DNA of 64,000 nucleotides from Gammaproteobacteria bacterium (GCA_965222615.1 CBDCUI010000009.1:64001-128000), one strand, 5' to 3'; shown: positions 1,977 through 23,143, counted from the stretch's first letter. The notes: generated from the letters alone by a model not told the origin. Program-made: numbers and translations.

Positions 1977-1991
1977 GTATGGAGAATTCAC

Positions 1992-2189
1992 ATGGCGGTA
2001 CAAAAGAACAGGAAAACACGTTCAAAGAGAGACATGCGTCGTGCACATGATGCACTACCCGCTGCGACTTTATCTGTGGATGGCACTACTGGTGAGACTC
2101 ATTTACGCCACCATGTTACGCCAGATGGCTATTATCGAGGTAAGCAGGTAATAGTGAAGCCAGAAGAGTATGAAGACGACGAGGAATAG
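1992..2189 (+). CDS. rpmF: 50S ribosomal protein L32 (Cys-less form)
   Basis: [19 protein letters not shown]...[15 protein letters not shown]. Confidence 0.98.
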
Positions 2190-2293
2190 TTTTTCTCGGG
2201 GGTCTTTGCATTTAAATATACTCAGACTTTTTCATCACATATATATTTAAATTCGTTTACGGTGACACATCCGTATACGCGATTGTAAAGTAA

Positions 2294-3319
2294 GTGACTA
2301 ACTATACGATTTCGCTAGATGCTATGGGTGGCGACTTCGGTGTACCCGTGGTTACTAAAGCAGCAATTAGTTATTTAGAAAATAATCACGATATTTCATT
2401 GATATTAGTTGGTGATCAGCAAGAAATTGCCTCCGAGCTCAGTAAGCAGAATGTAAAACCCTACGAAAGACTTATTGTTCATCACGCCAGTGAACGTGTA
2501 GAAATGGATGAATCTCCATCCCAGGCGCTACGTACTAAAAAAGATTCTTCTATGCGCGTTGCCATTAATTTAGTAAAAGATGGAAGTGCCGATGCCTGCG
2601 TCAGTGCTGGTAATACGGGAGCGTTAATGGCCACAGCAAGATATGTGTTGAAGACATTGCCAGGCATCGATCGACCTGCCATTACTAGCACTATTCCAGC
2701 GATTAATGGTCAAACCTATATGCTTGATTTAGGTGCAAATGTAGGTTGTACCAGTAAGCATTTATTACAGTTTGCAGTCATGGGTGCTGTGCTTGCAACT
2801 GCGGTTGACGAAATAGACAATCCTAAGGTGGGTCTATTGAATATTGGTGAAGAAGAAATTAAAGGTAATGAACAAGTTAAAGAAGCTAATGAGGTACTAC
2901 GCCAAAGTGGTTTAAACTATGTTGGTTATGTAGAAGGTGATGGAATTTATTGTGGCGACGTAAATGTAGTCGTTTGTGATGGTTTCGTTGGAAATGTTGC
3001 ACTTAAAACCAGCGAAGGGGTAGCAAAAATTATTTCGCATTATATAAAAGAAGAGTTTAATCGAAATATTTTAACTAAGTTAAGAGGTTTTTTGGCGCTA
3101 CCCGTTTTAAAGGCTTTTAGGCAACGTATCGATCCGCGACGTTATAATGGAGCAAGTTTGTTAGGCTTGCGCGGTGTAGTAATTAAAAGTCATGGTGGTG
3201 CAGATGCTTATTCATTCCAACATGCCATTAATATTGCGAGAATTGAAGCCATCAAACAGGTACCTAAGCAAATCGATGCAAGAATAGCAGAGTATTTAAA
3301 ACACGAAAGCGCGGCATGA
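2294..3319 (+). CDS. plsX: Phosphate acyltransferase PlsX
   Basis: [20 protein letters not shown] and KSHG motifs; rpmF-plsX-fabH synteny. Confidence 0.97.
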
Positions 3320-4296
3320 CCCAAGAAATGAACTACTCAAAAATAATAGGTACGGGGGGTTATTTGCCAGACAAAGTTCTGACAAATAAAGATTTGGAAA
3401 AAAGAGTAAATACTTCTGATAAGTGGATTCAAGAGCGTACAGGTATTAAACAACGACACATTGCTGCAGATGGAGAGACTACTTGTGATTTAGCGGTTAA
3501 TGCGTCGCGCCGTGCTTTAGAGATGGCCAATAAAACCCATGATGATATCGATCTCATTGTAGTTGCGACCACCACAGCAGATAAGATTTTTCCTAGTACA
3601 GCTTGTTTATTGCAAAAGCGACTCGATATACATGGCTGTGCAGCCTTTGATGTGCAGGCTGTGTGTACAGGATTTGTGTATGCCTTATCAATTGCCGATA
3701 AGTTTATTCGCACTGACTCTGCTAAATGTGCATTAGTAGTAGGTTCAGAAACATTGTCACGAATTTTAGACTGGAGTGACCGCAGTACCTGTGTGTTGTT
3801 TGGAGATGGAGCGGGTGCCGTTGTGTTGGAGGCCGCAAATAAACCTGGAATTCTTTCCACTCACTTGCATGCCGATGGAAGTTATGAGCACTTATTACAT
3901 GTACCGCATGGAATCTCAATGGGCTATGAACAACTCAAGGCCGGAGAAGCCTATGTGTACATGGAAGGCAATGCAGTATTTAAAATGGCAGTGAATACAC
4001 TTGGGCGCATTGTAGATGAGACACTTGAGGCCAATAGTATTAAAAAAAGTGATGTCGATTGGTTGGTACCCCATCAAGCCAACAACCGCATTATTGAAGC
4101 GACGGCACGCAAACTAAAAATGTCAATGGATCAAGTAGTGGTAACAGTTGCAGAACATGGCAACACCTCTGCTGCATCGATTCCACTGGCTTTGGATGTT
4201 GCCGTTCGTGATGGACGCATTAAAAAAGGTGAAATGCTTATGCTTGAGGCCTTTGGGGGTGGTTTCACGTGGGGTTCTGCCTTACTTAATTACTAG
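3316..4296 (+). CDS. fabH: Beta-ketoacyl-ACP synthase III
   Basis: Catalytic triad motifs AVCTGF, PHQAN and GNTSAAS; GGGFTWG. Confidence 0.97.
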
Positions 4297-4321
4297 ATTG
4301 CAAAGTATTATCAATCTTTAG

Positions 4322-4972
4322 GTGGCTACAGCTCACGCATCAATCTTTAAAGAGAATTGTACGAAGTGTTCTCGTCTAGCTAAATTCTTAATATCTAGTA
4401 AAAAAAAATTCCCTACTTATCATTGTAAACCGGTTGCGGCATTTGGAGATCCCAATGCAAAGCTATTGATTGTTGGTCTTGCCCCTGGTTTACATGGTGC
4501 CAATGCATCGGGAAGACCGTTCACAGGCGATTTTGCCGGAGTTTTATTATATGAAACTCTGCATAAATTTAATTTTGCCTCCCATCCAGTATCAAAAAAC
4601 CGAAGCGATGGATTAAAACTCATCAATTGTAGAATTACCAATGCCGTAAAGTGCGTACCACCTGCGAATAAACCTACCACGGATGAAATTAAGACTTGCA
4701 ATACCTATTTACAAAATGAATTACATTCGCTAACGCCAGGTTGTGTAATTTTAGCTTTAGGTAAAATTGCACACGACTCTGTCTTACGTGCCTTTGATTT
4801 AAAACTAGGCGCATATGCTTTTGGACATGGCAATCTATATACATTGCAAAATGGTACTCACTTATTGGACTCATATCACTGTAGTCGCTACAACACCCAA
4901 ACCAAACGGCTTACAACACAGCAATTTGAAGCGATCTTTGAACAGGCTAAAACTATTCTAAATGACAGTTGA
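4322..4972 (+). CDS. Uracil-DNA glycosylase, family 5 (UdgB-like, Fe-S)
   Basis: CxxC at the N-terminus, GLAPGLHGANASGRPFTGD, NAVKCVPPANKP..EIKTC and YHCSRYNT. Confidence 0.9.
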   Translation: MATAHASIFKENCTKCSRLAKFLISSKKKFPTYHCKPVAAFGDPNAKLLIVGLAPGLHGANASGRPFTGDFAGVLLYETLHKFNFASHPVSKNRSDGLKLINCRITNAVKCVPPANKPTTDEIKTCNTYLQNELHSLTPGCVILALGKIAHDSVLRAFDLKLGAYAFGHGNLYTLQNGTHLLDSYHCSRYNTQTKRLTTQQFEAIFEQAKTILNDS

Positions 4973-4978
4973 TTTGCT

Positions 4979-6811
4979 ATGAATAGCGCTAATCAAGAAT
5001 TTGATTTTAAGCAATTTGTACAAACGCTTACCCATGATCCTGGTGTCTACCGCATGTTGAATGCAGAAGGAAAGTTACTCTATGTAGGTAAAGCAAAAAG
5101 TTTAAAGAAGCGAGTGGCTAGCTATTTTTCAAAGAGTCAAGCGAGCCCACGTATTGCAAAAATGGTGGGACAGACAACAAGCGTTGAGATCACCATTACC
5201 AATACCGAAGCCGAGGCATTGTTACTTGAAAATAACTTAATCAAAGAACATCGTCCGCGTTATAACATTCTGTTAAGAGACGATAAAAGCTATCCCTATA
5301 TCTTTATCTCCTCAAAACACAAATATCCACAGATTACATTTCACCGTGGCAATCGCAGTAAATCTGGCCGCTACTTTGGTCCCTATACCAGTGTGGGGGC
5401 AGCCAGAAATGCGCTTAGTTTATTGCAAAAAGTTTTTAAAGTACGCCAATGTGATGATTATTTTTTTAATCACCGCAGTCGACCTTGTTTGCAACACCAG
5501 ATTGATCGCTGCAGTGCACCTTGTGTGGGTTTAATTGATGAAGAGAGTTATCGAAACGATATGGAATCAGCGATTGAATTCTTAGAAGGCAATAGTCAGC
5601 AACTAATTCAACGCTATGTAAAAGACATGGACGCTGCATCTAGCAATATGGATTACGAGCTGGCCGCTCAATATCGCGACAAAATTGAAATGTTGCGTAA
5701 AGTTTCTGAGCAGCAATATGTCAGTGCAGAAGATGGCAATGTAGACATTATTGCCGTGCAATGTGAAGGTGAAGTGGCTTGTGTTCAAGTATTTAACATC
5801 CGTGCCGGTATGAATTTAGGCAATAAAAGCTACTTTCCAAATTTACCGGAACCTACTTCAGCCGAAAAAACACTAGCCGCCTTTATTGGGCAATATTATT
5901 TATCCCATGCCATACCAGAAGAACTTATTACCAGTCATAAACCAGATGATTTTGCACTCATACAAGAAATGCTCAGCCACAGGGCAGGTAAAAGTGTTGT
6001 TATCAGATACTCACCACGCAGTAAACGTGCTCGTTGGTTAGAAATTGCAATAAAAAACGTTACCGCAGCCCTACAGAGTAAGCTGGCTAGCAAAGCAAGC
6101 TTAGAACAACGTTTTGAAGCGCTACAAGAAGAACTGGCCTTAGATTTTTTACCCACACGACTCGAATGTTTTGATGTCAGCCACACGAGTGGTGAAGCCA
6201 CGGTAGCATCATGCGTTGTGTTTGAACAAGAAGGGCCAGTAAAAAACGATTACCGCCGCTTTAATATCGAAAACATTAAAGCAGGTGACGACTATGCAGC
6301 AATGCAGCAAGCTCTTACACGACGCTACACAAGACTTAAAAAAGGTGAAGGAATATTACCTGATATTTTGTTCATTGATGGGGGCAAGGGGCAGGTAAAT
6401 AAGGCGAAAGAGGTCATCGATGAACTGCAAGTAGAAGGCGTTACCATCATCGGCATTGCAAAAGGGCTAGAAAGAAAAGCTGGTTATGAAACATTAGTGT
6501 TTACCGATGCAAGAGATAATATCAATTTAGCCGAACACTCCTTGGCGATGCATCTGATTCAACAAATACGCGATGAGGCACATCGTTTTGCCATTACCAG
6601 CCATCGCAAACGCCGTGCCAAAAGTCGAACCAGCTCACCACTTGAAAATATTGAGGGCTTAGGGCCGAAGCGTAGGCAAAATTTACTAAAGTATTTTGGC
6701 GGAATGAGAGGCGTCACCGATGCTGGGGAAGAGGAGCTTGCAAAAGTACCTGGTATTAGCAAGAATCTTGCAAAAGTCATTTACCAAGAATTGCATGCCA
6801 CGAGTAGTTAA
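4979..6811 (+). CDS. uvrC: Excinuclease ABC subunit C
   Basis: GIY-YIG motif PGVYRM..YVGKAK, ECFDVSH, IDGGKGQ, RDEAHRFA and C-terminal HhH. Confidence 0.98.
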   Translation: MNSANQEFDFKQFVQTLTHDPGVYRMLNAEGKLLYVGKAKSLKKRVASYFSKSQASPRIAKMVGQTTSVEITITNTEAEALLLENNLIKEHRPRYNILLRDDKSYPYIFISSKHKYPQITFHRGNRSKSGRYFGPYTSVGAARNALSLLQKVFKVRQCDDYFFNHRSRPCLQHQIDRCSAPCVGLIDEESYRNDMESAIEFLEGNSQQLIQRYVKDMDAASSNMDYELAAQYRDKIEMLRKVSEQQYVSAEDGNVDIIAVQCEGEVACVQVFNIRAGMNLGNKSYFPNLPEPTSAEKTLAAFIGQYYLSHAIPEELITSHKPDDFALIQEMLSHRAGKSVVIRYSPRSKRARWLEIAIKNVTAALQSKLASKASLEQRFEALQEELALDFLPTRLECFDVSHTSGEATVASCVVFEQEGPVKNDYRRFNIENIKAGDDYAAMQQALTRRYTRLKKGEGILPDILFIDGGKGQVNKAKEVIDELQVEGVTIIGIAKGLERKAGYETLVFTDARDNINLAEHSLAMHLIQQIRDEAHRFAITSHRKRRAKSRTSSPLENIEGLGPKRRQNLLKYFGGMRGVTDAGEEELAKVPGISKNLAKVIYQELHATSS

Positions 6812-7393: not shown

Positions 7394-7421
7394 TTGACTC
7401 ATTACAGCCGATCAATAGAAT
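7394..7421 (+). promoter_or_regulatory. sigma-70 promoter of the host tRNA-Gly locus
   Basis: TTGACT-N16-TAGAAT, 10 nt upstream of the tRNA 5' fragment. Confidence 0.7.
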
Positions 7422-7428
7422 ATAAGTC

Positions 7429-7469
7429 TATGCGGGAATAGCTCAGCTGGTAGAGCGCAACCTTGCCAA
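7429..7469 (+). repeat. attL: TAT plus the 5' 38 nt of tRNA-Gly(GCC) (truncated tRNA)
   Basis: 41-bp direct repeat of 23065-23105 with one mismatch (C7447 vs T23083); ends just after the GCC anticodon loop. Confidence 0.95.
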
Positions 7470-7693
7470 TATTAAACTTCCTTTTTTAGCTCTAATATAA
7501 ACAAGAGCTTACATCACACAGTTACAGCCTTACCTTCAAAAATTGTGTATTAATCGACGCAAATAAACGGTAGTTTGGCACAAAATGTCACAGTTTTTGG
7601 AGCGCAACACTTTTTGTGTCGAGCGCTTTTGATGGCCAATATATGTGACAGTTTCAGACACTATTATCAATCATTACAGGTTTCTAACTTTAG

Positions 7694-7749
7694 TTGCATT
7701 TTATATCCGTATTTGTATAAAATATGATTTATATCAATACCGATATAAA
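7694..7749 (+). promoter_or_regulatory. Promoter with tandem palindromic operators upstream of the HTH-STAND gene
   Basis: TTGCAT..TATAAA overlapped by TTTATATC-N6-TGTATAAA (7700-7721) and followed by TTTATATC-N6-GATATAAA (7728-7749). Confidence 0.6.
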
Positions 7750-7782
7750 TTAAACATTCCGCAATGAGTTAGCAATTCATAT

Positions 7783-10700
7783 ATGAGTGACAATTTAGAA
7801 GCTACCGAGTTATCAAACGACATTCGCGAAAGGGCAGAGCTTATTGTCACTTTGCAAGAATACCTGGTGGGACAGCCAGGAACGCAAGCTGATAAAGCCA
7901 AGCAACTTGGTATAACTCAACCGAGGCTAAATGCTTTACTTAAAAACAAAGTAGAAAAGTTTAGTTTGGATGCACTCGTAAATATCGCAGCGAAAGCTGG
8001 TGTTCGAGTAAATTTACAGTTGCAAAGGATTGCTAAACCACTTAAATCGCCACCTACAATTCTCAATACATTCCAAGTTGGCCCTTTCTTTTCTCCAATG
8101 CCCGATGAATTGGGTTATTTGGATTCGACTCAATCTTCTAAAGTATTTCTAAATCTTTTACGTTGCGATGTAACTAGTGCAGGTATTAGTCCGTCAAACA
8201 TCGTGTTTTCGCTTAACACTACTACAAAAGACGGAGGTATTGACGCAAAGGTAGAAGTTGAATGTGCATCAAGCTCATTTCTTGATAATGGTAATGTTCA
8301 TTTCCAAGTTAAAAGCGGATCAAGTTTCAAGCCGTGGTATGCAAGCTGTCTTAAAAGAGAATTGTTTGGAAAATCTAATGCTCGCCCATCAAAAAAAGCT
8401 TTAGGAGATGCGGTTAAACATTGCCTTGATAATGGACACACATATTGTTTGGTTACGTTTGGGCATGATTTGCTACCAAAGGAACATACTAAAACTATAA
8501 ATTACTTAATAGAATATTTTCAGGCATGCGGTTATCGAAATCCCAAAGTTAAAGTTCTTGGTCAAGGTCAACTTATAGGTGAGATAGAAAAATACCCATC
8601 ACTTTGTCTCGAATTAAAAGGTTTATCGGTTGATGGGGCGCAGCCAATAGAATACTGGAAAAACAATGCTCAAATGCAGCTCCCATTATTTAAGGGAGAG
8701 CCGCAAAATAAATTTATTGATGAGATTCAAGACTTGATACGTAGTAATTCTGTTCAGCATATCAGAGTTATAGGTGAGCCAGGGATTGGCAAAACACGAC
8801 TTATTCTTGAGTCCGTGTCGGATCAATTTATTGCACCCACAGTTGTTTACATTAGTTCCGGAGAAGAATTTCAAAAAAGTAAATTGTTTAAAGAAATACT
8901 TAGAGTAGATAGAAACTTCTCCGCTACGTTAGTAATAGATGATTGTGATTCTCGCGATAGGACATCTATTTGGTCAGCTCTAAAAGGTAATTCCCGAATT
9001 AAATTGATAACAATTGATCATGGTCCCGAAGACAGTGATGACAGCAGTATGAAAACGATTCATTGTCCGTTGCTACCAAATGAGCAAATTGAAGAAATAT
9101 TAGCTAGCTATTTAGACAAAAAATATGACTTGCGTAATTGGGCAGAAATGTGTGACGGATCTCCTAGAGTAGCTCATGCAGTAGGAGAAAATTTAGCTAA
9201 GAATTCAAGTGATGTTTTAAAAACACCAGCTGATGTTCCAATCTGGGAAAGATTTATCATTGGACACAAACCGATTAATAGCGTTGATGCAGAACAATAT
9301 CGCATAGTTTTGCGTCACCTAGCGTTGTTTCAAAAATTTGGATTTGAGAATCCAGTTGATGAAGAAGCGCGCCACATCTGTACTCTTGTCCAAAAAGTTG
9401 ATTCGTCTATTAGTTGGGGAAAGTTCCAGACTATTGTCTTGCACTATAAAAATAAACGAATACTTCAAGGAAATACTACGTTGTATTTTGTCCCAAAAGC
9501 ATTGCATATTCATCTCTGGGTCGATTATTGGGAACAACATGGAAGAGGTTTTAAATTTCAAGACATATATGAGGAATTGCCCAGCGGCTTAAGGAACTGG
9601 TTTTTGCAGTTATTTATTTATGCTCACGATGTTGAGCCCGCAAAAAAAGTTGTAAAGAATATTTTATCCGAAGATGGGCCATTTTCAGATGTTAGCTTCT
9701 TTAAATCTAAGACTGGGTTGAAATTTATAAGTGTGTTAGCAGAGGCTGATCCTGCTTCTACATTAAGATTGATAGAAAGAACACTAGAAGAGTGGAGTCA
9801 TGAGGACATATATAAGCTTAATGAGGGGCGCCAGTACCTTGTATGGGCTTTGGAAAAAATATCTGTATGGAAAAATTTATTTGCTCGTAGTGTAGATGTA
9901 TTAACAAGGTTAGCACTCGCAGAGAATTCAAATTACGGCAATAATTCAACAGGGATATTACTAAGTCTATTTCAAATTGGACGAGGTTGGGCGCCAACGC
10001 AAGCACCCCCTGAAATGAGATTTCCCATTTTGCAAGAGTTTGTGAGGAGTGAAGATTCAGCAAAAAGAGAGTTAGGATTCAAAATGTGTGAAACATGGCT
10101 GGACACACATGGGGGAATGAGAACTATAGGTTCTGAGTATCAAGGTATACGGCCAACAATTAAATTCTGGGCGCCGAAAGTATGGGGGGAAATATTTGAT
10201 TGTTGGCGAGACGTACTGAAATTTCTATTTGATGAGATGAAAGGATTTGATATTGAAAACAAAAACAAAGCTGCGAATGTTTTAGTGCATGCTGCATTTG
10301 ACTTAATTGACACCAATGCGGTTACTGATCAAATCCATGACATATTATTTGAACTTGCAAATGATGAAGATATAAGCAAAAAGGGACTCACTAATTTTGT
10401 AATTAGGATGCTTAATAGACGAGATAGAAAACTAGAGTCTAGCCTATTAGAAAAAATAAATGAGCTAGACAATATGCTAACTGGTACCTCATTGATAGAT
10501 AGAATTACAAGATTTGTATTAAATACAAATTGGGAAGAGCACTATGGGATAAATGATGGAGATAATAGTGAATCAGATAGGCGAGTAAATGAGTTAGCAA
10601 AAGAATACATGGCTGATACTGAGCATTTCGATAAATATGCATTAAGCCTATTAAAAGCATCTGGACTTAAATTGCCACAATTCGCATATGAATGTGGAAA

Positions 10701-11838
10701 GCAAGCTACTGAGAATTTATTAGATGAAAAATTATTAAATTTGATCAAGGATAATGTCGAATACATAAATAGTGAATATTTAGGAGGTTATCTTTCTGGT
10801 ATTCGAGAGCTTGATGAGGATAGATGGGAATCATTAATTGTGTTATTGCTTAGAGATGTAAATACAAGAGACTTGGCAATAAATTGTATAACGAGATCCG
10901 GACTAAACGATTCCCTTATACATCTAATGCTAAATATGTATAAGAAAGAGGAGATAAGCTCTAGCGCATTTTTTAATTTCTATTATAAGCGTGAGAATTC
11001 AGGTGTTTCATTTGATGCGGTTAGAGAAATTATACATACCTTACTCCAATATCCCGACGACACATCAGTTAGTGTTGCAATTGAAATTTTATACGTTAAA
11101 TACATAGAAGATGAAATTAATCCTTTACCAGAAGAATTGGTACTTAACGCTCTCATTGCGCCCCCGATTAAAATTTATACCCAAGAAGCAATGTATGACT
11201 ATCATTGGGAAAAAATTGCAAATGTTTATTTGAAAGAGTATCCACATAGAAGCATGGAATTGCTAGGTTCAATTTTCGATAAAATTCTTAGTGGCGCCCA
11301 ATATTATTCTTACTCATTTTTACGAAAAACAGCAGCTAAGATTATTAAAAGCGAACCTGATTTATCGTGGAAATTAGTATCAAGGATGCTTGAAGATAAC
11401 GACGCAGCTTCTTTTCATTTAATGTATTGGTTTGATAGTGACAACATTGAGGAAGGTGAAGAGAATAAAAGCTTAGCAAGTTATTTCCCTATAGATAAAG
11501 TTATGAAATGGGTTGGTGAAGACGAAAAAATTAGGAAGAATAAAATAATTGAAATATTGCCTAAAACTTTAGAATTACAGAATGGCGGTTATCTAACTCG
11601 TGAATTTATTGATAAATTTTGTAACGATAAAAAAACCACTGGAAGGCTCATAGTGCATTTTTGGGCCGGTTCATGGAGTGGAAATACTAGTGCATACTTA
11701 TCAGGCAAGAGAGATATAGCTAGAAAATGGTTCAGTGAAATTGAATCAGCTAGGATACAAAAATGGTTAAGCTATTACATGGACTGGTTAAGTGAACGAA
11801 TTGAGAGAGAGTTGATTGAAGAAGAAAGAGAATTTTGA
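7783..11838 (+). CDS. XRE-HTH + PD-(D/E)xK-like nuclease + STAND-like P-loop NTPase + helical repeats (candidate Avs-like defence protein)
   Basis: N-terminal TQADKAKQLGITQPRLNALL..FSLDALV; DGGIDA...FQVKS; Walker A GEPGIGKT; Walker B LVIDDCD; CDGSPRVA; long alpha-helical C-terminus. Confidence 0.7.
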   Translation: MSDNLEATELSNDIRERAELIVTLQEYLVGQPGTQADKAKQLGITQPRLNALLKNKVEKFSLDALVNIAAKAGVRVNLQLQRIAKPLKSPPTILNTFQVGPFFSPMPDELGYLDSTQSSKVFLNLLRCDVTSAGISPSNIVFSLNTTTKDGGIDAKVEVECASSSFLDNGNVHFQVKSGSSFKPWYASCLKRELFGKSNARPSKKALGDAVKHCLDNGHTYCLVTFGHDLLPKEHTKTINYLIEYFQACGYRNPKVKVLGQGQLIGEIEKYPSLCLELKGLSVDGAQPIEYWKNNAQMQLPLFKGEPQNKFIDEIQDLIRSNSVQHIRVIGEPGIGKTRLILESVSDQFIAPTVVYISSGEEFQKSKLFKEILRVDRNFSATLVIDDCDSRDRTSIWSALKGNSRIKLITIDHGPEDSDDSSMKTIHCPLLPNEQIEEILASYLDKKYDLRNWAEMCDGSPRVAHAVGENLAKNSSDVLKTPADVPIWERFIIGHKPINSVDAEQYRIVLRHLALFQKFGFENPVDEEARHICTLVQKVDSSISWGKFQTIVLHYKNKRILQGNTTLYFVPKALHIHLWVDYWEQHGRGFKFQDIYEELPSGLRNWFLQLFIYAHDVEPAKKVVKNILSEDGPFSDVSFFKSKTGLKFISVLAEADPASTLRLIERTLEEWSHEDIYKLNEGRQYLVWALEKISVWKNLFARSVDVLTRLALAENSNYGNNSTGILLSLFQIGRGWAPTQAPPEMRFPILQEFVRSEDSAKRELGFKMCETWLDTHGGMRTIGSEYQGIRPTIKFWAPKVWGEIFDCWRDVLKFLFDEMKGFDIENKNKAANVLVHAAFDLIDTNAVTDQIHDILFELANDEDISKKGLTNFVIRMLNRRDRKLESSLLEKINELDNMLTGTSLIDRITRFVLNTNWEEHYGINDGDNSESDRRVNELAKEYMADTEHFDKYALSLLKASGLKLPQFAYECGKQATENLLDEKLLNLIKDNVEYINSEYLGGYLSGIRELDEDRWESLIVLLLRDVNTRDLAINCITRSGLNDSLIHLMLNMYKKEEISSSAFFNFYYKRENSGVSFDAVREIIHTLLQYPDDTSVSVAIEILYVKYIEDEINPLPEELVLNALIAPPIKIYTQEAMYDYHWEKIANVYLKEYPHRSMELLGSIFDKILSGAQYYSYSFLRKTAAKIIKSEPDLSWKLVSRMLEDNDAASFHLMYWFDSDNIEEGEENKSLASYFPIDKVMKWVGEDEKIRKNKIIEILPKTLELQNGGYLTREFIDKFCNDKKTTGRLIVHFWAGSWSGNTSAYLSGKRDIARKWFSEIESARIQKWLSYYMDWLSERIERELIEEEREF

Positions 11839-11984
11839 ATAAAATTAGTCTTTTTTTGTATTCAATATTTTATCGTGTCGATAGCCCACGTATAAAATCA
11901 CAAAGGTTGGCGAATATCTACCGTTCATTTTGTTAGTACGTATAGGCATTCACAGCTCCAATTGTTAGGGCGTTCATAAAAATA

Positions 11985-12043
11985 TTACAAATTTATGAGT
12001 GGCCATGATCATTTAAATTGTAGCCGGATACCCCCCTATGGGG
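11985..12043 (+). other. Putative packaging / terminal-repeat-like site resembling T7-type genome ends
   Basis: TTACAAATTTATGAGTG...CCCCCCTATGGGG resembles (from memory) the T7 right-end junction AAAAATCTGAGTG...CCCCCATAGGGGG. Confidence 0.45.
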
Positions 12044-12359
12044 TCGGCAAACCACCATATAGGACCACCAAAACACCTGCCTACTTGGTTTAACACCAAG
12101 ACCTCAAGTCTTCTAGCCCGAAGGCCTAGCACCTGCAAAGTCAATGTTTATGCGGGCTTAGGTCATCCTTAGCATTGTCTAGGTGTGTCAATGTTGACTT
12201 GAACTGTGACATAGGGGTGACTTGGAGAGGTTGAGGAGCTGGCTTAGGTGGTCTCAGCGCGTCCATTTGAGTGCAGGGGAGCAGGCTTCAATACGCACAT
12301 CCTAATCACTAACAATCATTCCAGTTAAATACCAACAGTAAGGAGTAACCATTCACAGC

Positions 12360-12668
12360 ATGAAAGTAGAAGCATTTAGACAACCTGACCTAGGTCATTC
12401 AGTTGAGATGCTAGACATGATCAAGCAGATGTTTAGCGAAGGCATACCGCAATCTCGGATAGCAGAGCGTCTTAATAAGAAAGGCTATAGGGGCGCTCTT
12501 GGTGGTAAATGGAATTCCAGTAGTGTCGGTAGATTGCTTAGGCAGTTGAAGCTATTGCCTACACACAGTAGTTATCTTGAAGTGACCAAACAGAATGCTG
12601 AGCTGAAGGCGAGGGTTATAGAGTTAGAGGATACGTTAGAACATATAATGAAGGAGCATTACAGTTAA
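12360..12668 (+). CDS. Small DNA-binding protein: serine-recombinase 'Recombinase'-domain-like HTH plus coiled coil
   Basis: SRIAERLNKKGYRGALGGKWNSSSVGRLL pattern; AAGGAG RBS; C-terminal heptads. Confidence 0.6.
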   Translation: MKVEAFRQPDLGHSVEMLDMIKQMFSEGIPQSRIAERLNKKGYRGALGGKWNSSSVGRLLRQLKLLPTHSSYLEVTKQNAELKARVIELEDTLEHIMKEHYS

Positions 12669-12766
12669 TTAATCTATTTTTTCAAGTAGTTACAAGTGAA
12701 ACATAAAGTAAAAATAATGGCTATATACTACGCTCAGTCATGAGGTTATATAACGCTGTTAAAGGG

Positions 12767-13283
12767 GACCCCTACTCTCAGAGAACTACAAACAAACTTT
12801 CGAGTTTAAGACCTCGACAAACAAAACTTTCCCCTATCCAATCGTCGTGTGAAACATGTTTCACGCTCTGACCTACGGGGTCGTGGGTTTTAGCCCGAGT
12901 GTTGTAACTCAACTGATAGATTCAATGTGACAGTTTTTACTGTTGTTAAAGGATTTAAGAATGGCTTAGGTAAGCGAGTGAAAATTGACTTAAGTCGGAA
13001 ACTTGAGTTTTAGGACCCTCACTTATAGACCTATGGAACCGTCGTAACCGTTCGTCAATGTTTAGAACGCCTATTCTAAGACAACTAGAACCACCACTTA
13101 TAGACTAAACAACCAAACAAACAAATCGAGTTTCTGATCTCTCAAAAAACTTTCACCTATCCAATCGAAATCAGTATATGGGGTTTTCAAAATACCTAAC
13201 ATTTTCAGTGAAGTAGTAAAAGACCCCTACTTACAGAGAAATTCATAGTTTTCTGAATCTAATATCAGTTACCTATCCAACCG
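12767..13283 (+). repeat. Four bipartite repeat modules (16-bp box A plus 12-bp box B); phage-RNAP-promoter-like
   Basis: Box A GACCCCTACTCTCAGA (12767), GACCCTCACTTATAGA (13014), AACCACCACTTATAGA (13089), GACCCCTACTTACAGA (13222); box B CCTATSSAAYCG at 12833, 13030, 13156, 13272. Confidence 0.8.
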
Positions 13284-13367
13284 TCATCACAGCTAAGGGT
13301 AGGGCTTAAAAATTTCCTCAATACTGGCTCGCAATGCCAGTTATTCATATCAACTTAAAGACATACC

Positions 13368-13625
13368 ATGAACAAACAACACCAAATCTACCGCATCAAT
13401 CTCGATGCCTTAAGCCGTGATCAACTTGAATATGCAAAGCAAAAAGTAAATGAAGTCACCGGAGCACGCTTCAGTTACTCCGAGCTTGTCCGCTGTGGTA
13501 TCGATCTAATGAGCCGTGAGCTGGAGCGTCAATTGAATAACTCAACAGGGTTAGCAAACAGATTAATAAATAGATTCGGTAAGTACCGATGGGCTAGGTC
13601 CGCTACTCAACGCAAAAGGAAGTAA
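13368..13625 (+). CDS. Putative ribbon-helix-helix-like DNA-binding protein
   Basis: Beta strand YRINL followed by a helix and SYSELVRCGI. Confidence 0.4.
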   Translation: MNKQHQIYRINLDALSRDQLEYAKQKVNEVTGARFSYSELVRCGIDLMSRELERQLNNSTGLANRLINRFGKYRWARSATQRKRK

Positions 13626-13628
13626 CAA

Positions 13629-13964
13629 ATGGAAACAGATATAGATATTAAAGATGTAAGTCTAATGGACGTGTCTACATGGCATCACGATGTAGACGAT
13701 ACGGAAGCCCTTACACGGAAGCATATCCCAAACCTAGACATTGCAAAGTGGCTGTTACAGATCAGGGCCGATGCTCCGAATAAAGCTCCAGTAGTAATTA
13801 AAGGCGAAGAACAAGAGCCCACACCACATATTGATGTTACTCGAAGTAATCAACTGCTGAAGATAATTGCTTGCAACTTATTACAACGATTCTGTGTGCT
13901 TACATTTAATTCAAACATCGAGAAGGTCATAGATGAATATGAACGTCGTACCGTTATCTACTGA
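13629..13964 (+). CDS. Hypothetical protein
   Basis: AAGGAAG RBS; tightly packed operon. Confidence 0.55.
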   Translation: METDIDIKDVSLMDVSTWHHDVDDTEALTRKHIPNLDIAKWLLQIRADAPNKAPVVIKGEEQEPTPHIDVTRSNQLLKIIACNLLQRFCVLTFNSNIEKVIDEYERRTVIY

Positions 13965-14220
13965 TCTTACATTACCAAGTGGTCCCGCAAGTTATGAAGA
14001 TGTATGCACAATACATCGGCAAGTTACCTCTATTCTGTCTGATGACTTAAACAAGATAGAAGAGGGCACTTATGATGGTGATGAGAAAGCGAAAGCAGAG
14101 ATCATCAAGGTTGCTATTAAGTTCTTAAAGGACAATAAGATCTTAGTTGATGAGGATAGCTCACCGAGAAAGTATGCAACTCAACTAGAAAGTTTAGAGT
14201 TGCCGACGTTTAGAGACTAG
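13933..14220 (+). CDS. Autographivirus-like terminase small subunit (DNA maturase A-like)
   Basis: AS.E....IH..V...L and AIKFLKDN.I...LPTF pattern recalled from TerS of T7-supergroup phages. Confidence 0.55.
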   Translation: MNMNVVPLSTDLTLPSGPASYEDVCTIHRQVTSILSDDLNKIEEGTYDGDEKAKAEIIKVAIKFLKDNKILVDEDSSPRKYATQLESLELPTFRD

Positions 14221-14256
14221 ATAAAAGCTTAAGGAAATAAATTAAAGGGATACAAA

Positions 14257-16176
14257 ATGGAACAATTAATCACAATCGACTCGAATGAGTTTGTCGAAAG
14301 GATGCAAGAACATTGGGAGACTACATTAGGCAATGTAAGCAGTGATGCATTACGCCTTGTATGGAAGCAACTATCTTCAACATTCAATGGTTATATTGGT
14401 GGACATGCAGATAAAGAATGGTATGTATTGCAACCCCCCACTGGATCAGGCAAAACTCAAGGCACTATTGTTTATGCATCGATGCTGTCTGAACTGGAAA
14501 TGACAGATCACCCTGGAATGTTAATTGTTACACGTCGGATATTCGATGCAGATTTAATAGCAGATCAGATAAATGAACTTTCAGGTCGAGAGGTAGCCGT
14601 TAGCTTTCATAGTGATAAGCATAAAGAGCTATCAATTCACGAGCTGTCCAAATGGCCTGTATTAGTCATTACCCATAGAGCCTATGAATTAGCACTGGAT
14701 CAAATCTATAAAGATCAAAGCAATAAAGATACATGGGATTACTTCAATGAGTGGATACCTAAGTTTGATTCAAATGGCAGAAAGTTAATTGTTATTGATG
14801 AGTCACTAGACATTGTTGAGCATAATCAAGTCACAGCTTCAGAGCTTAACCACACCATAGGTTGTCTTGACACAAAGCTATTAATTAAATATCCAAGTGA
14901 AATCGAAGCAATTAAGGTTGCAAGAGACCATCTCCTTAAAATAGAAGCAATGAACTTTGCAAGCACTACGACCACCATTGTCAAAAGCGTGCTCGATGAT
15001 ATTACTAAGGCACCTAATTTCTCAGAACTAATAAAAGACCTCAAGCAAGTGCGCTTCGATTTTCAAGTTCATAAGAATGACACCAATGAGAATAACAAAA
15101 TGAGGTCATTACATGAGAAGAGATTGAATGCACTGCAACGTATCTATAACTCATGGATGTACTATGCGAGGCTAGAGAATAAAGAAACATTAAACACAGC
15201 AAGATTGCTTGTACCAAGTAATGTTAGAGGCGCGGTTGTATTAGATGCAACAGCGAAGTCTAACTTGATCTATACAGTATTCGATAAAGCAAAGGTACTC
15301 ACACCACCGGAAGGTTCACGAAACTATCAGAATGTGAATGCACATTTCTTAAAGGGCTTCAACGGTGGCAAGGTATCGATGCAAAAGAATGCTAAGAAGC
15401 TTGCTAAGCAATTAATGGCGGACTTAAACACACGACTAGCGGGTCGTAATGTTCTTATCATTACTCATAAAAGTGTTAGACCAAGCCTTGAGCTATATGA
15501 AGGTAACACTAGTTTCAAAATGAACATTGCTCATTGGTTTAACGCCGCGGGTAGTAATGAATGGAAAGACTGTGATGCTGTAGTGTTATGGGGATTACCA
15601 TTTCTACCTGATTATGTGGCGACTAATACGTTCATGGCATGTCAAGGTGTACAAGAAGATGAGTGGCTGACAGATGTAACTAAGAGAGAGTTCAAAGGAA
15701 TAAAAGACATCAAGCAAGCACTTAAGGTTGGAGCTAGCGTAGTAGAGATCGTCCAAGGTCTGAATAGGATCGCCTCACGCAAAGTTATAGACACTGAAGG
15801 TAACTGTCCTGAAGTCGATTTCTATATTCCATTACCCAATAACACAATTGGAGAAGCAATCTATAAGGGGATTGTTGAGGAGATGCCTAGGATGACCTTA
15901 GGTGAACCTTGGAAACTAGACACCGATGCTAAGCCAGTTAAGAAAGGTAACGGTGAAATAGCTCTAGTGTCTTATCTCACTAATATGATGAGAGGGAAGG
16001 TTAGTGCTAGTCAGGTTAAGAGCGAGATAGGAATATCTCCCGCAACATTTAAAAGACTAGTAGCTAAGTTAAAAGATACAACTAGTTCCTTATATCAATC
16101 ACTAATAGATATAGGAGTTAAGTATCAAGTTAGTGGTAAGGGACAAAGACAAGTCGCTCATTTTGTTAAGTCTTAA
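14257..16176 (+). CDS. SF2 helicase-like replication protein with C-terminal HTH
   Basis: PTGSGKT (I), LIVT (Ia), VITH (Ib), IVIDES (II), LDATA (III), QGLNR (VI); SASQVKSEIGISPATFKR HTH. Confidence 0.75.
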   Translation: MEQLITIDSNEFVERMQEHWETTLGNVSSDALRLVWKQLSSTFNGYIGGHADKEWYVLQPPTGSGKTQGTIVYASMLSELEMTDHPGMLIVTRRIFDADLIADQINELSGREVAVSFHSDKHKELSIHELSKWPVLVITHRAYELALDQIYKDQSNKDTWDYFNEWIPKFDSNGRKLIVIDESLDIVEHNQVTASELNHTIGCLDTKLLIKYPSEIEAIKVARDHLLKIEAMNFASTTTTIVKSVLDDITKAPNFSELIKDLKQVRFDFQVHKNDTNENNKMRSLHEKRLNALQRIYNSWMYYARLENKETLNTARLLVPSNVRGAVVLDATAKSNLIYTVFDKAKVLTPPEGSRNYQNVNAHFLKGFNGGKVSMQKNAKKLAKQLMADLNTRLAGRNVLIITHKSVRPSLELYEGNTSFKMNIAHWFNAAGSNEWKDCDAVVLWGLPFLPDYVATNTFMACQGVQEDEWLTDVTKREFKGIKDIKQALKVGASVVEIVQGLNRIASRKVIDTEGNCPEVDFYIPLPNNTIGEAIYKGIVEEMPRMTLGEPWKLDTDAKPVKKGNGEIALVSYLTNMMRGKVSASQVKSEIGISPATFKRLVAKLKDTTSSLYQSLIDIGVKYQVSGKGQRQVAHFVKS

Positions 16177-16179
16177 AGT

Positions 16180-16228
16180 TATGAGGCTCACTTCCCTTTA
16201 ATAAACCTATAGGGATTCGATCCTCATA
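16180..16228. other. Imperfect inverted repeat directly after the helicase gene (candidate origin or terminator)
   Basis: TATGAGG..TCCCT..AATAAACC..AGGGA..CCTCATA. Confidence 0.45.
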
Positions 16229-16822
16229 AATATGAACGGTCAGTTATTAAAACTATCTGATACTTCGTAACCAACCGATCATAGACATCACTAGGTTTTA
16301 GGGGTCGTTATCATCCCCGTTATTTCCTCCCTGGTGGTGTCTATCCACCTAGGTCCAGCTAAGGTCATCCTTAGGTCTCTCCATACATCTTCCATACCCT
16401 ATGGATGGATCTTATTGGTCCTATAACTATCTAGCTTGCCTTATGGGCTAGAGAATGGAATAGCCGGTATAGGTCTAAACTTCGCCTATGCTGGCTAGTT
16501 CCTAGCTTATAATGACCGCTAACGACCCAAAGCGGACATTCAAATCATGACAAACTAGATAGGCTGGATCTTATTCCGCTTGAACTGCCGATTTCTCACA
16601 TTTAAACATCGCTATCTATCTAATCCTGCTGTATGGTGAATCTAAGATTAGATATTCCTATCCCGATTTTCTTCCAGAGTTTCATTTCTTTGCCAGTTGT
16701 CGGCAATCATCTCTAATTACTGATTCCTTTGACACAGTGTCATTGGAGCACTAACACATGTGCAAATAGATTGAATGGGTATGCGCACAACAAGGCTCGA
16801 TCATCGAGCAAGGATATAAACA

Positions 16823-17089
16823 ATGAAACTATATGTAGGTAATTTACCTTGGAGCGTAACTGATGTGGATTTAAAAGAACTTTTTAGTGAGGTTGGCGAA
16901 GTAACAAGCGCCACCATTATCACTGATAGAGATTCTGGTCGATCCCGTGGATTCGGTTTCGTAGAAATGGCGAAAGAGGCTGGCCAACAAGCGATTAAGA
17001 AATTCAGCGAGCACGTAATTGATAACAGAACGCTGCGTGTCAATGAAGCAAATGAAAAACAACCCCGTCAAGCTGGCGGCCATTCTTAA
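16823..17089 (+). CDS. RRM-domain RNA-binding protein
   Basis: RNP2 LYVGNL, RNP1 RGFGFVEM and LRVNEA. Confidence 0.95.
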   Translation: MKLYVGNLPWSVTDVDLKELFSEVGEVTSATIITDRDSGRSRGFGFVEMAKEAGQQAIKKFSEHVIDNRTLRVNEANEKQPRQAGGHS

Positions 17090-17169
17090 AAGGTAGTTGG
17101 GCTAATGATCTTCGGGCGACATAACAATGCCGCTCGAGATCCTTTGACTACACAAAAGGAGCTACTTCT

Positions 17170-17313
17170 ATGATCGAAGAAGAAGAAAAGAAGTTGATGG
17201 ATCAATACGGGGTCATTTCTCAGCAAAAAACGGTGTATCACTATAATGGGTACAACTATGACAATCTTGAAGATGCGATTCGGTATGCCAAGATTGACAC
17301 TCAGCGAAAGTGA
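17170..17313 (+). CDS. Small hypothetical protein (47 aa), not in the ORF track
   Basis: AAAGGAG RBS; MIEEEEKKLMDQYGVISQQKTVYHYNGYNYDNLEDAIRYAKIDTQRK. Confidence 0.65.
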   Translation: MIEEEEKKLMDQYGVISQQKTVYHYNGYNYDNLEDAIRYAKIDTQRK

Positions 17314-17352
17314 ATTTGGCCCGTTCCCACAAAATTCTATGAGGAAGCCAAC

Positions 17353-17745
17353 GTGAATACTATTAAAGATATCAAGATAAAAGGCTTAGACCCGAATCGA
17401 AGGCCCAGTCTAAAGAATAAAAACTACGTTGATATAATTTTCGAGCTGACTCAAAAAGCACCCAAAGACTGGTGCGCTGACTTCAATTTATTATTTTCAA
17501 AAGATAAGCACAACGCAAAGATAAATCCTGATGAGGGACGATATGTTGAGACATGGGTGAGAAATATTAACGACATTCCAAAAGAACTTGAGCTGATTAA
17601 ACAACTCATCGTAATCTGTAATAACAACTATATTGAACAAAAGCATCAAGAAGAACTAGCTTGGCAAAAATCTGAAAACAGCAAATCCAATAGCCGCAGC
17701 GATGAATTAGAAGGTATCCTGGCAAGCCTAAATTTCAATTCATAG
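17353..17745 (+). CDS. Hypothetical protein
   Basis: GAGGAAG RBS before GTG; 130 aa. Confidence 0.65.
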   Translation: MNTIKDIKIKGLDPNRRPSLKNKNYVDIIFELTQKAPKDWCADFNLLFSKDKHNAKINPDEGRYVETWVRNINDIPKELELIKQLIVICNNNYIEQKHQEELAWQKSENSKSNSRSDELEGILASLNFNS

Positions 17746-17776
17746 CTCTTGTCTGAAATTGGCCGAAAGGAATCAT

Positions 17777-18076: not shown

Positions 18077-18219
18077 CTAATGTAGTAGATGACCGCTATT
18101 GGCCGAAAGCGGACATAAACTAAGCCAGTAAGGCAGAAATTAGGTTGGATTCCATAAATAACATGTTCAAAATGACTGCTAACGACCCAAAGCGGACATA
18201 GGAAATAATAATATTTGAT

Positions 18220-18654: not shown

Positions 18655-18742
18655 GCATCAACTTTTGAATGACTGCTTTTGGCCGAAAGCGGACATAAAG
18701 AGCTAAGCCACATTAAAGCAACCTAGCTCTATCCCTGTAGCA

Positions 18743-21756: not shown

Positions 21757-22086
21757 ATTAGTGATGAAACTTTATCCCTTAGCGAAGCTGCACATCTATT
21801 AAAGATGTCACCTGAAGCGTTACGGCGCAAAGCTAAGGCCTGTGATATTCCTGGCGCAAAACCTGCCAAGGAATGGGTATTTATTAAGGAAGATTTACTC
21901 GCTTACATCCGCTCATGTTATGCTAAACCTGTAACTGTGTGGAGTGAGCGATCAACTGAAAAGGAGATCAATCAATGCCATACAAACGAAAAGACAATGG
22001 AGTCTATTACTCCAATTTTGAATCCAGAAGTGGAGAGCGGGTACGAAAGAGCCTTAGGACGCGTGATAGAAATGAGGCCATCATAA
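21757..22086 (+). CDS. Excisionase-like HTH_17 protein, apparent ATT start
   Basis: ETLSLSEAAHLLKMSPEALRRKAK..IPGAKPAKEWVF; helix 1 lies upstream of the ATG at 21805; AAGGAG-N6-ATT; in-frame TAA at 21751. Confidence 0.7.
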   Translation: MSDETLSLSEAAHLLKMSPEALRRKAKACDIPGAKPAKEWVFIKEDLLAYIRSCYAKPVTVWSERSTEKEINQCHTNEKTMESITPILNPEVESGYERALGRVIEMRPS

Positions 22087-23036
22087 AAGAGGCTGAATTG
22101 ATTGCGGCAGATAAGGGTGAAGTCGTACAGATTAACAATAACCGGAAAACTTGGCGTGATGCTGTTTACCGATACTGGAATGAAGTGGAAGGTAAAGCTA
22201 GCGCTGATTGTATTCAAATACATTTAAGGTTCTTGGATACATTCTTAGGAGATAAGTATCTCGATGAGATCAATGATGAACTTATCGAAGATATTATTGC
22301 TGCTAAAAGTAGTGAGAAAAACCGTAAAGGTGAGAAGCTATCCGGTGCTACAGTTAATCGATTAACGGCGACGTTAAAGTCGGTGTTCAATAGTGCAAAG
22401 AAATACAGATGGATCGACAACGTTCCGTATGTAAGAAAGTTAGAAGAGTCAGAGGGTAGGAGTAGGTATCTCACACCATCTGAATCTAAACGATTACTTG
22501 ATCATTGTGCTGAACACTTAAAACCGATAGTGACATTTGCTTTGCATACAGGCTTGAGAAAGCAGAATGTATTAAGGCTTAGATGGGAGAATGTAGACCT
22601 CGATCAAGGTAAGTGCTGGGTGCTTAGCTCAGAGCATAAAAACCGAAAGGCGAGGGGTGTTACTCTCAATAGTGTTGCTTTAGGGGTGCTACGAGAATTA
22701 GCTATATATAAGGTGTCGCCCTATGTATTTAACTATAGGGGGCGGCCTATTGGAGATGTGAAGACGGGACTTAAGCGAGCCTGTGAACGGGCTGGCTTAA
22801 AGGACATATCCTTCCACACATTTCGACATACTTATGCTTCTTTACTAGCACAGCAAAACGTTTCGACCCTAGTTTTAAAGGAGCTAGGTGGATGGAAGTC
22901 AATGCAAATGGCTCAAAGATACGCTCATCTTAATGATGACGGACTGCGAGAATACCAAGAATTGCTTGTAGGTTTGTCACAGTACTGTGACAAAAATCCA
23001 CCGCCCAAGTTAAGGCTAGTAAGTGGAAAATCGTAA
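21975..23036 (+). CDS. int: Tyrosine recombinase / phage integrase
   Basis: TGLRK (R), HKN (K), HTFRH, LGGW and RYAH (Y); adjacent to attR. Confidence 0.95.
   Translation: MPYKRKDNGVYYSNFESRSGERVRKSLRTRDRNEAIIKEAELIAADKGEVVQINNNRKTWRDAVYRYWNEVEGKASADCIQIHLRFLDTFLGDKYLDEINDELIEDIIAAKSSEKNRKGEKLSGATVNRLTATLKSVFNSAKKYRWIDNVPYVRKLEESEGRSRYLTPSESKRLLDHCAEHLKPIVTFALHTGLRKQNVLRLRWENVDLDQGKCWVLSSEHKNRKARGVTLNSVALGVLRELAIYKVSPYVFNYRGRPIGDVKTGLKRACERAGLKDISFHTFRHTYASLLAQQNVSTLVLKELGGWKSMQMAQRYAHLNDDGLREYQELLVGLSQYCDKNPPPKLRLVSGKS
22973..22994. promoter_or_regulatory. Perfect 22-bp palindrome (candidate integrase arm-site pair)
   Basis: TTTGTCACAGTACTGTGACAAA; the TGTCACA/TGTGACA half-site also occurs near attL (7586, 7644). 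Confidence 0.6.
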
Positions 23037-23067: not shown

Positions 23068-23143
23068 GCGGGAATAGCTCAGTTGGTAGAGCGCAACCTT
23101 GCCAAGGTTGAGGTCGCGAGTTCGAACCTCGTTTCCCGCTCCA
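23068..23143 (+). tRNA. tRNA-Gly (GCC), intact, includes attR
   Basis: 76-nt cloverleaf GCGGGAA...TTGCCAA...GTTCGAA...TTCCCGCTCCA. Confidence 0.98.

Follow-up and report, generated by a model that had tools for sequence, protein, structure and literature searches.

We analysed a 64,000-nt window of the 3.1-Mb genome of a Gammaproteobacteria bacterium (GCA_965222615.1 CBDCUI010000009.1:64001-128000) that contains a gene for a large multidomain protein, P0001, in which a helix-turn-helix (HTH) domain, a nuclease-like domain, a STAND NTPase module and a long C-terminal region follow one another. The comparative analysis points to P0001 as a probable antiviral sensor of the Avs8 superfamily that carries the DNA-binding domain of a type II antitoxin and is preceded by a predicted operator for this domain. 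The features of the locus are listed in Table 1. The 1351-aa product proposed for this gene in a first-pass annotation of the window is encoded by a real open reading frame (ORF), and the GC content of the gene is 0.34-0.37, compared with ~0.40 in its surroundings.

Table 1. Predicted features of the P0001 locus and of the surrounding island (positions in the window)
Feature	Position	Strand	Basis
attL: duplicated 5' part of tRNA-Gly(GCC), 38 nt, up to the anticodon loop	7432..7469	+	direct repeat
Distal operator-like site TTATATCCGTATTTGTATAA, 2 mismatches to TTATATC-N6-GATATAA	7701..7720	.	overlaps predicted -35 and spacer
Proximal operator (predicted) TTATATCAATACCGATATAA, exact family palindrome	7729..7748	.	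directly after predicted -10
HTH / Mrr-like nuclease / STAND NTPase / sensor gene (P0001)	7783..11838	+	uninterrupted ATG-start ORF, 1351 aa
HTH_37 DNA-binding domain, HigA-type (aa ~10-80)	7810..8022	+	Pfam, PDB sequence match, fold
PD-(D/E)xK Mrr-like nuclease effector domain (aa ~105-285; D150, D154, Q175, K177)	8095..8637	+	invariant motif, fold
STAND NTPase module, approximate bounds	8698..9552	+	nucleotide-binding domain aa ~306-430; helical and winged-helix parts to ~aa 590
C-terminal sensor region (aa ~591-1351)	9553..11835	+	homology to sensor part of PD-Lambda-4_A profile
Tyrosine integrase, ends 32 nt before tRNA	21975..23036	+	Phage_integrase 1.2e-30 (Pfam); phrog_1 1.8e-65
Intact tRNA-Gly(GCC); its 5' 38 nt (23068-23105) are the attR repeat copy	23068..23143	+	

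Domain architecture of P0001

The only significant Pfam domain of P0001 is HTH_37 (PF13744, aa 13-79, E 7.3e-13, 48.6 bits with a cut-off of 27); matches below threshold were obtained for NB-ARC, ATPase_2 and AAA_16 around aa 312-380 and for DUF4365 at aa 144-182. The HTH domain matches the PDB entry 2a6c by sequence (E 4.7e-9) and superposes on it in Foldseek with a template modelling (TM) score of 0.81, a root mean square deviation of 1.3 Å and 34% identity; by fold comparison, 2a6c and 2o38 gave Z scores of 11.1-11.7 (11.1 for 2a6c). It also superposes on many XRE, HipB and C-protein repressors, and CapH is among the fold matches. When the PDB was searched with a profile of aligned relatives of P0001, the HTH alone was matched, and this sequence search yielded no close relative with a solved structure. 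In the AlphaFold2 model of aa 1-300, with a predicted local distance difference test score (pLDDT) of 82.6, the HTH (aa 1-75) is confidently placed and is joined to the following domain by a disordered linker of ~20 residues (aa 79-99, pLDDT <50).

The next domain contains the motif DGGIDA...FQVKS, which corresponds to D150, G152, D154, Q175 and K177. Residues ~100-283 were confidently modelled as an alpha-beta-beta-beta-alpha-beta core that aligns solely with PD-(D/E)xK nucleases, namely AF1548 and the nuclease domain of LlaBIII (Type ISP), each with Z 7.8, MspJI and FokI (Z 7.5), EcoT38I (Z 7.3) and residues 1-178 of Avs4 (Z 6.7); Can2, Card1 and LmuA match this domain in fold as well. The Walker A motif of P0001 is GEPGIGKT (aa 331-338), and Walker B is formed by D386/D387. 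Residues D150, D154, Q175 and K177 and the Walker motifs are invariant in all 25 aligned members of the clade of P0001, and the nuclease and P-loop residues are invariant in all 30 aligned sequences when relatives without an HTH are included.

An AlphaFold2 model of aa 85-726 (mean pLDDT 86.1, predicted TM score 0.81) gave 137 Foldseek matches at E ≤ 1e-3, and the best PDB matches are all STAND proteins: Apaf-1 (1z6t, E 4e-6), Avs3 with terminase (8dgc, E 6.2e-6) and Avs4 with portal (8dgf, E 1.7e-5), as well as SAMD9, Avs5, MalT (8bob), plant NLR resistosomes and CED-4. Helices start near aa 590 and continue to the end of the modelled part at aa 726. The C-terminus matched no Pfam repeat family, and a search of the Atlas with the sensor (aa 700-1351) returned unnamed clusters only, with HEAT-like leads scoring below 0.8.

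Thus, the HigA-like XRE HTH named in the first-pass annotation is confirmed by a match above the Pfam cut-off and by its agreement with 2a6c in both sequence and fold, and the D..D...QxK nuclease-like motif and the Walker A/B motifs are intact, invariant and situated on predicted PD-(D/E)xK and STAND folds, respectively. The ~800 aa of helical repeats claimed for the remainder of the protein are supported in part, as helices are seen within the modelled segment and no known repeat family is recognized.

A conserved palindrome upstream of HTH_37-fused genes

Among 1.84 billion representative proteins, 2,812 relatives of P0001 aa 90-1289 were found at E ≤ 1e-3, including 816 at E ≤ 1e-30. The close clade comprises 881 matches; the best 120 of these 881 are all ~1,270-1,391 aa long and 46-53% identical to P0001, and 119 of these 120 (P0001 included) contain PF13744. 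The few named proteins among the same 120 are called 'XRE family transcriptional regulator'. A single-protein query of genome contigs found no relatives, whereas an alignment-based query did, yielding 65 genomic loci, 29 with long matches and 36 with small-protein matches.

The upstream regions of fused genes share a 20-bp palindrome with the consensus TTATATCAAT|ATTGATATAA, that is, TTATATC-N6-GATATAA. With up to 2 mismatches, it occurs within 200 nt upstream of the start in 22 of 22 HTH_37-fused loci; outside the 400-nt upstream zone of the same loci (310,560 nt), no site was found at 0-1 mismatch and six were found at 2 mismatches. The palindrome was found in none of the six HTH-less loci and in none of the three canonical PD-lambda-4A loci. 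The 65 loci contain 28 matches to an exact 18-nt core, spread over 25 of them and all located within ~410 nt upstream of the HTH-coding match. In locus L079, an independent find made via the PADLOC profile, the 1360-aa gene is immediately preceded by two exact sites. Conservation of the palindrome extends beyond Nitrospirales to Desulfobulbaceae, several Gammaproteobacteria and a Pseudomonadales metagenome-assembled genome (MAG), with differing flanks.

Upstream of P0001, two palindromic sites bracket the promoter-like hexamers TTTATA (7700-7705) and TATGAT (7723-7728). The exact site occurs only once in the genome, at 7729-7748, and sites with 1 mismatch are as frequent as for the control (4 vs 4). 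The same two-site layout, with a spacing of 18-29 nt, was observed in loci L002, L003, L005, L008, L019, L029 and L079. In single-site loci (L004, L006, L009, L014, L015 and others), only 9 nt lie between the palindrome and the ATG, and the right arm is -10-like, which suggests leaderless or near-leaderless mRNAs.

Because the HTH_37 module and the palindrome strictly co-occur, P0001 most likely switches off its own promoter via the HTH. The fused transcriptional repressor of the first-pass annotation is thus supported by a conserved palindrome at the promoter of the gene itself, as far as sequence comparison can tell.

Probable origin of the HTH_37 module and its predicted operator

The 36 loci with small-protein matches encode only a protein of ~93 aa that is 38-56% identical to P0001 aa 3-90. 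In 24 of these 36 stand-alone HTH_37 loci, the palindrome (≤2 mismatches) is present upstream; an overlapping ORF of ~107 aa follows, and the distance from the start of the palindrome to the start codon of this ORF is usually 24-29 nt. All 12 upstream ORFs tested encode Gp49/HigB-like toxins (PF05973, E 1e-22 to 3e-28), so that these loci have the form of toxin-antitoxin (TA) operons. The geometry of the TA operons recurs in single-site fusions, with the palindrome beginning 29 nt ahead of the ATG. The fused HTH domain is collinear with the whole antitoxin, and the region of the recognition helix, LGITQPRLNxLLKxRIDKFSLDALV, shows almost no difference between fused and stand-alone proteins; the N-terminal 'SVWDAIED' segment of the antitoxins is missing from the fusions. 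No Gp49/HigB-like toxin ORF was found upstream of P0001, where 7470-7782 is non-coding.

These sequences are most simply explained if the toxin gene of a HigBA-type module was lost and what remained of the module (promoter, operator and antitoxin) was joined to an Avs8-like gene. Co-inheritance of the HTH and the palindrome in two unrelated gene contexts, together with the established behaviour of type II antitoxins, argues that the HTH would bind the palindrome and repress.

Fusion to an HTH appears to be recurrent. Of 17 N-terminally extended representatives, one has HTH_37, eight have HTH_3 or HTH_31, three have sub-threshold matches to HTH_3 or HTH_23, and five have no Pfam match in the extension, while none of eight canonical-length representatives has an HTH. 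We built a tree of 61 sequences from 1,253 columns downstream of the HTH (FastTree, LG+gamma), leaving out fragments and most unscanned full-length proteins of the top 150 representatives and rooting it on the canonical pair. All 4 HTH_37 fusions group in a single clade (support 1.0) surrounded by HTH-less lineages, and the HTH_3/31 and HTH_23 forms occupy at least three other places. Therefore, an N-terminal HTH was gained or lost several times on one scaffold.

Placement in the Avs8/PD-lambda-4A superfamily

In PADLOC, P0001 matches the PD-Lambda-4_A profile (PDLC03991) with E 8.6e-40 over nearly its full length, aa 108-1349 being aligned with positions 9-1273 of 1283. This was the sole match among Avs-type models for all 20 scanned family members (57-129 bits). 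By BLASTP, P0001 is 24% identical to the canonical protein L070 over aa 125-762 (E 1e-19). The two are bridged by L074, a protein of 1343 aa (1492-5523, minus strand) from a genome (G317) of the same taxonomic family as the window, which aligns with P0001 aa 40-1350 (21% identity, E 2e-26), matches the PD-Lambda-4_A profile end to end with 310 bits, and branches in the tree between canonical Avs8A and the clade of P0001. The N-terminal region of L074 differs from that of P0001 and by eye resembles the HTH_3/XRE type; in this one example, no convincing palindrome was found upstream. From the remote full-length profile match, the similarity to L070 and the L074 bridge, P0001 is assigned to the Avs8/PD-lambda-4A superfamily as a member of a large sister clade and not as an orthologue.

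The Avs8/PD-lambda-4A system of E. coli and Klebsiella was reportedly described by Vassallo and colleagues in 2022. The first-pass annotation had proposed an Avs-like defence protein of effector-STAND-sensor layout, and this is supported by the full-length PADLOC match and by the occurrence of relatives in defence islands (see below). The published trigger of the Avs8 family is the HK97-fold major capsid protein and neither of the phage proteins that the annotation named for Avs, terminase and portal. PD-lambda-4 has been renamed Avs8, and Avs8A consists of an Mrr nuclease and a P-loop STAND NTPase (bioRxiv 10.1101/2025.07.02.662641); Avs8 is one of three capsid-sensing Avs families, which wrap around the A-domain of the capsid protein (Nature 2026, PMC13581612, and its preprint). 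The terms HTH, helix-turn-helix, autoregulat and repressor have no occurrence in the main text of PMC13581612, and HTH, Avs8 and XRE have none in seven of its supplement files. Literature searches, which did not cover bioRxiv supplements, returned no description of an HTH-Avs8 fusion or of its operator.

Genomic context of the relatives

Of the 29 loci with long matches, 14 have a divergent AbiEi-like gene upstream and 12 an AbiEii-like gene, as determined by Pfam on examples and by a BLAST census. Type IIG or type I restriction-modification (R-M) genes lie downstream in several of the 29 loci, and the HTH-less relatives L020, L024 and L025 are found inside hsdS-X-hsdR type I R-M operons, accompanied by DUF3800 or small ORFs. 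Neighbourhoods of this kind are typical of defence islands. Among the IMG/VR viral contigs, the alignment query gave 149 pattern matches, none of which encodes a relative.

The AbiEi-like (~358 aa) and AbiEii-like (275 aa) proteins are 65-94% identical to the pair in L001. Loci with these genes, at ~3600-5870 in each, are L001, L004, L006, L007, L009, L011, L013-L016, L018 and L026-L028. The pair adjoins the HTH-Avs8-like gene and shares with it the operator-bearing intergenic region; it is absent from the window. The pair and the HTH-Avs8-like gene may be a co-travelling cassette of two systems.

Locus L037, considered as a split form, was rejected, as it contains two separate small HTH genes ~2 kb apart. 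The N-terminal extension of the L022 ORF resembles an upstream start call and shows no HTH by eye.

Proposed mechanism

Taken together, these data make it likely that P0001 is a single-gene antiviral Avs protein of the Avs8 superfamily to which a HigA-type antitoxin DNA-binding domain, with its promoter and operator, has been fused at the N-terminus. In the uninfected cell, the HTH_37 domain, presumably as a dimer, would occupy the two sites at 7701-7720 and 7729-7748, so that transcription of a potentially self-toxic nuclease would be low and self-limiting, as the comparison of loci suggests. Upon infection, the C-terminal sensor would bind a conserved phage protein, by homology likeliest the monomeric HK97-fold major capsid protein, a choice for which the support is weak. 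By analogy with Avs3, Avs4 and Avs8, NTP-dependent STAND oligomerization would then gather the Mrr-like PD-(D/E)xK domains, with DNA cleavage and abortion of the infection as the expected outcome.

The capsid hypothesis was addressed by complex prediction. No gene matching the PF05065 capsid family was found in the host genome (G000), and the capsid protein of phage lambda was therefore used as the partner. With P0001 aa 693-1351, it gave an interface score (ipSAE) of 0.53 (0.46, 0.57 and 0.53 in individual runs), and the best of three controls scored 0.00; at least 50% of the contacts were common to the runs, and the pLDDT of the partner was at least 66. Of 157 solved complexes, 116 reach the mark used for such predictions, as do 2 of 215 mismatches. 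According to the tool, most passes at a score like the one obtained are wrong, except where the pairing was already likely on other grounds. For P0001, the homology to Avs8 supplies such grounds, and because of it capsid sensing is kept as the leading candidate for the trigger, with a chance that we regard as about even; since the similarity to canonical Avs8A is remote, the trigger of P0001 could differ from that of Avs8.

A number of points weigh against the proposed function and mechanism. As to the effector, the Z scores of 6.7-7.8 for the predicted nuclease fold fall in the range that the tool rates as middling, yet all matches are to one type of protein and are in line with the invariant motif. 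As to the family, P0001 scores 110-134 bits against the PD-Lambda-4_A profile vs 1019-1129 bits for canonical members (in a sample of the class comprising 401 genomes), the BLASTP alignment to L070 ends at aa 762 and leaves the C-terminal 590 residues unaligned, and the E. coli system is defined with a second gene, Avs8B, no counterpart of which was found here. The 18 neighbouring ORFs have no PADLOC match of any kind, nor does any ORF beside the canonical genes L070 and L072 (PADLOC not being confirmed to include an Avs8B model), and 11839-12359 contains no co-oriented ORF of at least 60 aa. As to regulation, the proximal site lies 54 nt from the ATG in the window, compared with 29 nt in single-site loci, no clear Shine-Dalgarno sequence is visible before the ATG of P0001, and the 22 fused loci are not 22 independent observations, as about half of them come from related Nitrospirales MAGs. 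As to the trigger, the lambda protein is a stand-in, the sensor was cut to aa 693-1351, and the predicted interface is weak by the calibration of the tool, in which 18 of the 157 solved complexes, and both of the passing mismatches, reached the mark with a score of 0.60 or under.

A further step, activation-coupled derepression, is conceivable, and we consider it rather doubtful. Here, capsid-driven STAND tetramers would remove or exclude the HTH dimers from the operator, or deplete the free pool, so that more sensor would be made while the infection proceeds. If true, this would be a one-polypeptide feed-forward immune circuit made from an exapted TA antitoxin and its operator and reinvented repeatedly, with different HTH types, on a common scaffold.

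Alternative explanations

An improbable alternative is that the HTH serves as a DNA-tethering or targeting module, or takes part in sensing or effector delivery, the palindrome being a leftover of the ancestral TA promoter. Published lists of N-terminal 'effector module' domains in STAND/NACHT conflict systems include HTH domains, and the flexible 20-residue linker between HTH and nuclease would suit a tether. A relic, however, would decay, and all 22 fused loci, from Nitrospirales, Desulfobulbaceae and Gammaproteobacteria, have retained the palindrome, although their proteins are only ~50% identical. In addition, a single exact site in the genome, at the promoter of the gene itself, leaves little room for sequence-specific tethering elsewhere.

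Still less probable is a fused TA-like switch, in which the HigA-derived domain neutralizes the nuclease in cis until a phage factor releases it, with the STAND and sensor parts being secondary. Such an arrangement would resemble fused CapRel, a TA defence protein known to sense capsid, and the HTH of P0001 is clearly derived from Gp49/HTH_37 TA antitoxins. Yet it is the 'SVWDAIED' segment of the stand-alone antitoxins that is not kept in the fusions. Its counterpart in HigA2, an N-terminal segment, is presumably the toxin-binding part. Moreover, most family members are HTH-less proteins of ~1255 aa with no N-terminal extension, and Gp49-type toxins are unrelated to Mrr nucleases, so that no interface could have been inherited.

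The least probable reading, a STAND-type signal-sensing transcription factor comparable to MalT, AfsR and GutR whose nuclease-like domain is a non-catalytic relic, would account for the name 'XRE family transcriptional regulator' given to clade members and for the fold match to MalT (8bob), and STAND transcription regulators do exist, but it is contradicted by the invariance of D150, D154, Q175, K177 and the Walker motifs, by the full-length match to a validated defence family with relatives in defence islands and R-M operons, and by the exact operator occurring once in the genome, hence no regulon.

The surrounding island

We next turn to the element that carries the Avs8-like gene. A 15.6-kb insertion (7470-23067), with P0001 as its first ORF, separates pgsA from tRNA-Gly(GCC) and is bounded by a direct repeat (7416-7469 vs 23052-23105, 87% over 54 nt). 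Unusually, the duplicated attachment (att) sequence is the 5' half of the tRNA gene, and the integrase reads toward the intact tRNA. With this att sequence and this orientation of the island, the 5' half of the restored tRNA is therefore island-borne. Contig joints that skip the island, found in three DNA runs, were rejected as evidence of excision, as their sides are only 24-26 nt long and lie within the tRNA, and they possibly derive from other organisms.

The island holds a small-terminase-like ORF (PF11123, 5.8e-8; phrog_891, 1.2e-8), and 14 of its 17 ORFs lack a PHROG match. A 102-aa ORF at 12360-12668 contains only a fragment of the serine-recombinase 'Recombinase' domain (PF07508, 2e-6; phrog_95) and is probably a remnant within the island. 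A protein of 639 aa has helicase-like leads only in the Atlas and no PDB sequence match; it is present in 2 of 56 genomes of the order, including that of the window. The first-pass annotation had placed P0001 on an element that may depend on phage packaging. The island, the att repeat, the integrase and the small-terminase-like gene are real, and nothing shows a phage satellite, a satellite-like element being possible.

Several repeats were observed in the island. A repeat of ~48 nt with the core ...CCRAAAGCGGACAT occurs four times (16493-16540, 18070-18117, 18153-18200 and 18650-18697), the copies being 67-73% identical to the reference copy. These repeats separate small ORFs, namely RRM_1 (16823-17089), DUF7684 (17759-18076) and a CBS pair (18220-18654), in a cassette-like layout; a 14-nt core of the repeat has four occurrences in the genome, and metagenome contigs break or join at the repeats. 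Three direct copies of CCTATCCAAYCG (12833-12844, 13156-13167 and 13272-13283; 0.23 expected, 0 of 100 shuffles reaching 3) sit in a 1.5-kb non-coding stretch before the operon at 13368-16176; they may be regulatory sites, or iterons if the island has an origin there. The sequence TGTSACAGTTT is found at 7586-7596 and 7644-7654, between attL and the operator, and at 12926-12936. With 6 matches in the window vs 3.1 expected, and as many as 6 also in 12 of 100 shuffles, its enrichment was rejected as not significant; the pair close to attL may represent arm-type sites for a recombinase.

Comparison with known systems

How bacteria regulate their toxic immune effectors is under active study. To our knowledge, known cases of such regulation use separate repressor genes. 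The clade of P0001 offers a testable model of cis-encoded dose control, and possibly of infection-coupled induction, in an NLR-like nuclease, and documents an evolutionary route by which an antitoxin and its operator would have been captured from a HigBA-type TA module. Annotation wrongly presents the proteins of this clade as transcription factors, and defence genes of this kind would be overlooked or under-called.

P0001 shares with Avs8/PD-lambda-4A the Mrr-like nuclease, the STAND NTPase and a long predicted sensor in the same order, along with the full-length profile match; capsid-triggered oligomerization and DNA cleavage would be expected by homology. It differs from Avs8 by its low identity (~24%), by the additional N-terminal HTH_37 domain with a cognate predicted operator, and by having no Avs8B-like neighbour that we could find. 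The Walker motifs, intact in P0001, are reported as degenerate in KpAvs8. Avs4 (8dgf) and Avs3 (8dgc) have the same effector-STAND-sensor layout, and the Avs4 nuclease aligns with P0001 aa 102-283 (Z 6.7), whereas their sensor families and triggers (portal and terminase, respectively) are different, they have no HTH, and the sequence identity is 7-10%.

With the type II TA systems formed by Gp49 (HigB-like) and HTH_37 (HigA-like), P0001 has in common an HTH that is 38-53% identical, the same 20-bp palindrome, and a similar operator-to-start distance (24-29 nt to the toxin start in TA operons, 29 nt to the ATG in single-site fusions). In contrast to these systems, no toxin gene is present in the window, another sequence takes the place of the N-terminal antitoxin segment, and the HTH is covalently linked to an immune protein of 1250 aa.

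Transcription of a toxic immune effector is also held back by CapH/CapP, BrxR/WYL, RptR and the C-proteins of R-M systems. There, the regulators are encoded by separate genes and often have a signal input of their own, whereas the predicted repressor domain of P0001 is within the effector polypeptide, and the dose of the repressor therefore equals that of the effector. Thus, nuclease-STAND sensors of the Avs8 type are known, and what appears to be new is the cis-fused, TA-derived HTH domain with its conserved predicted operator.

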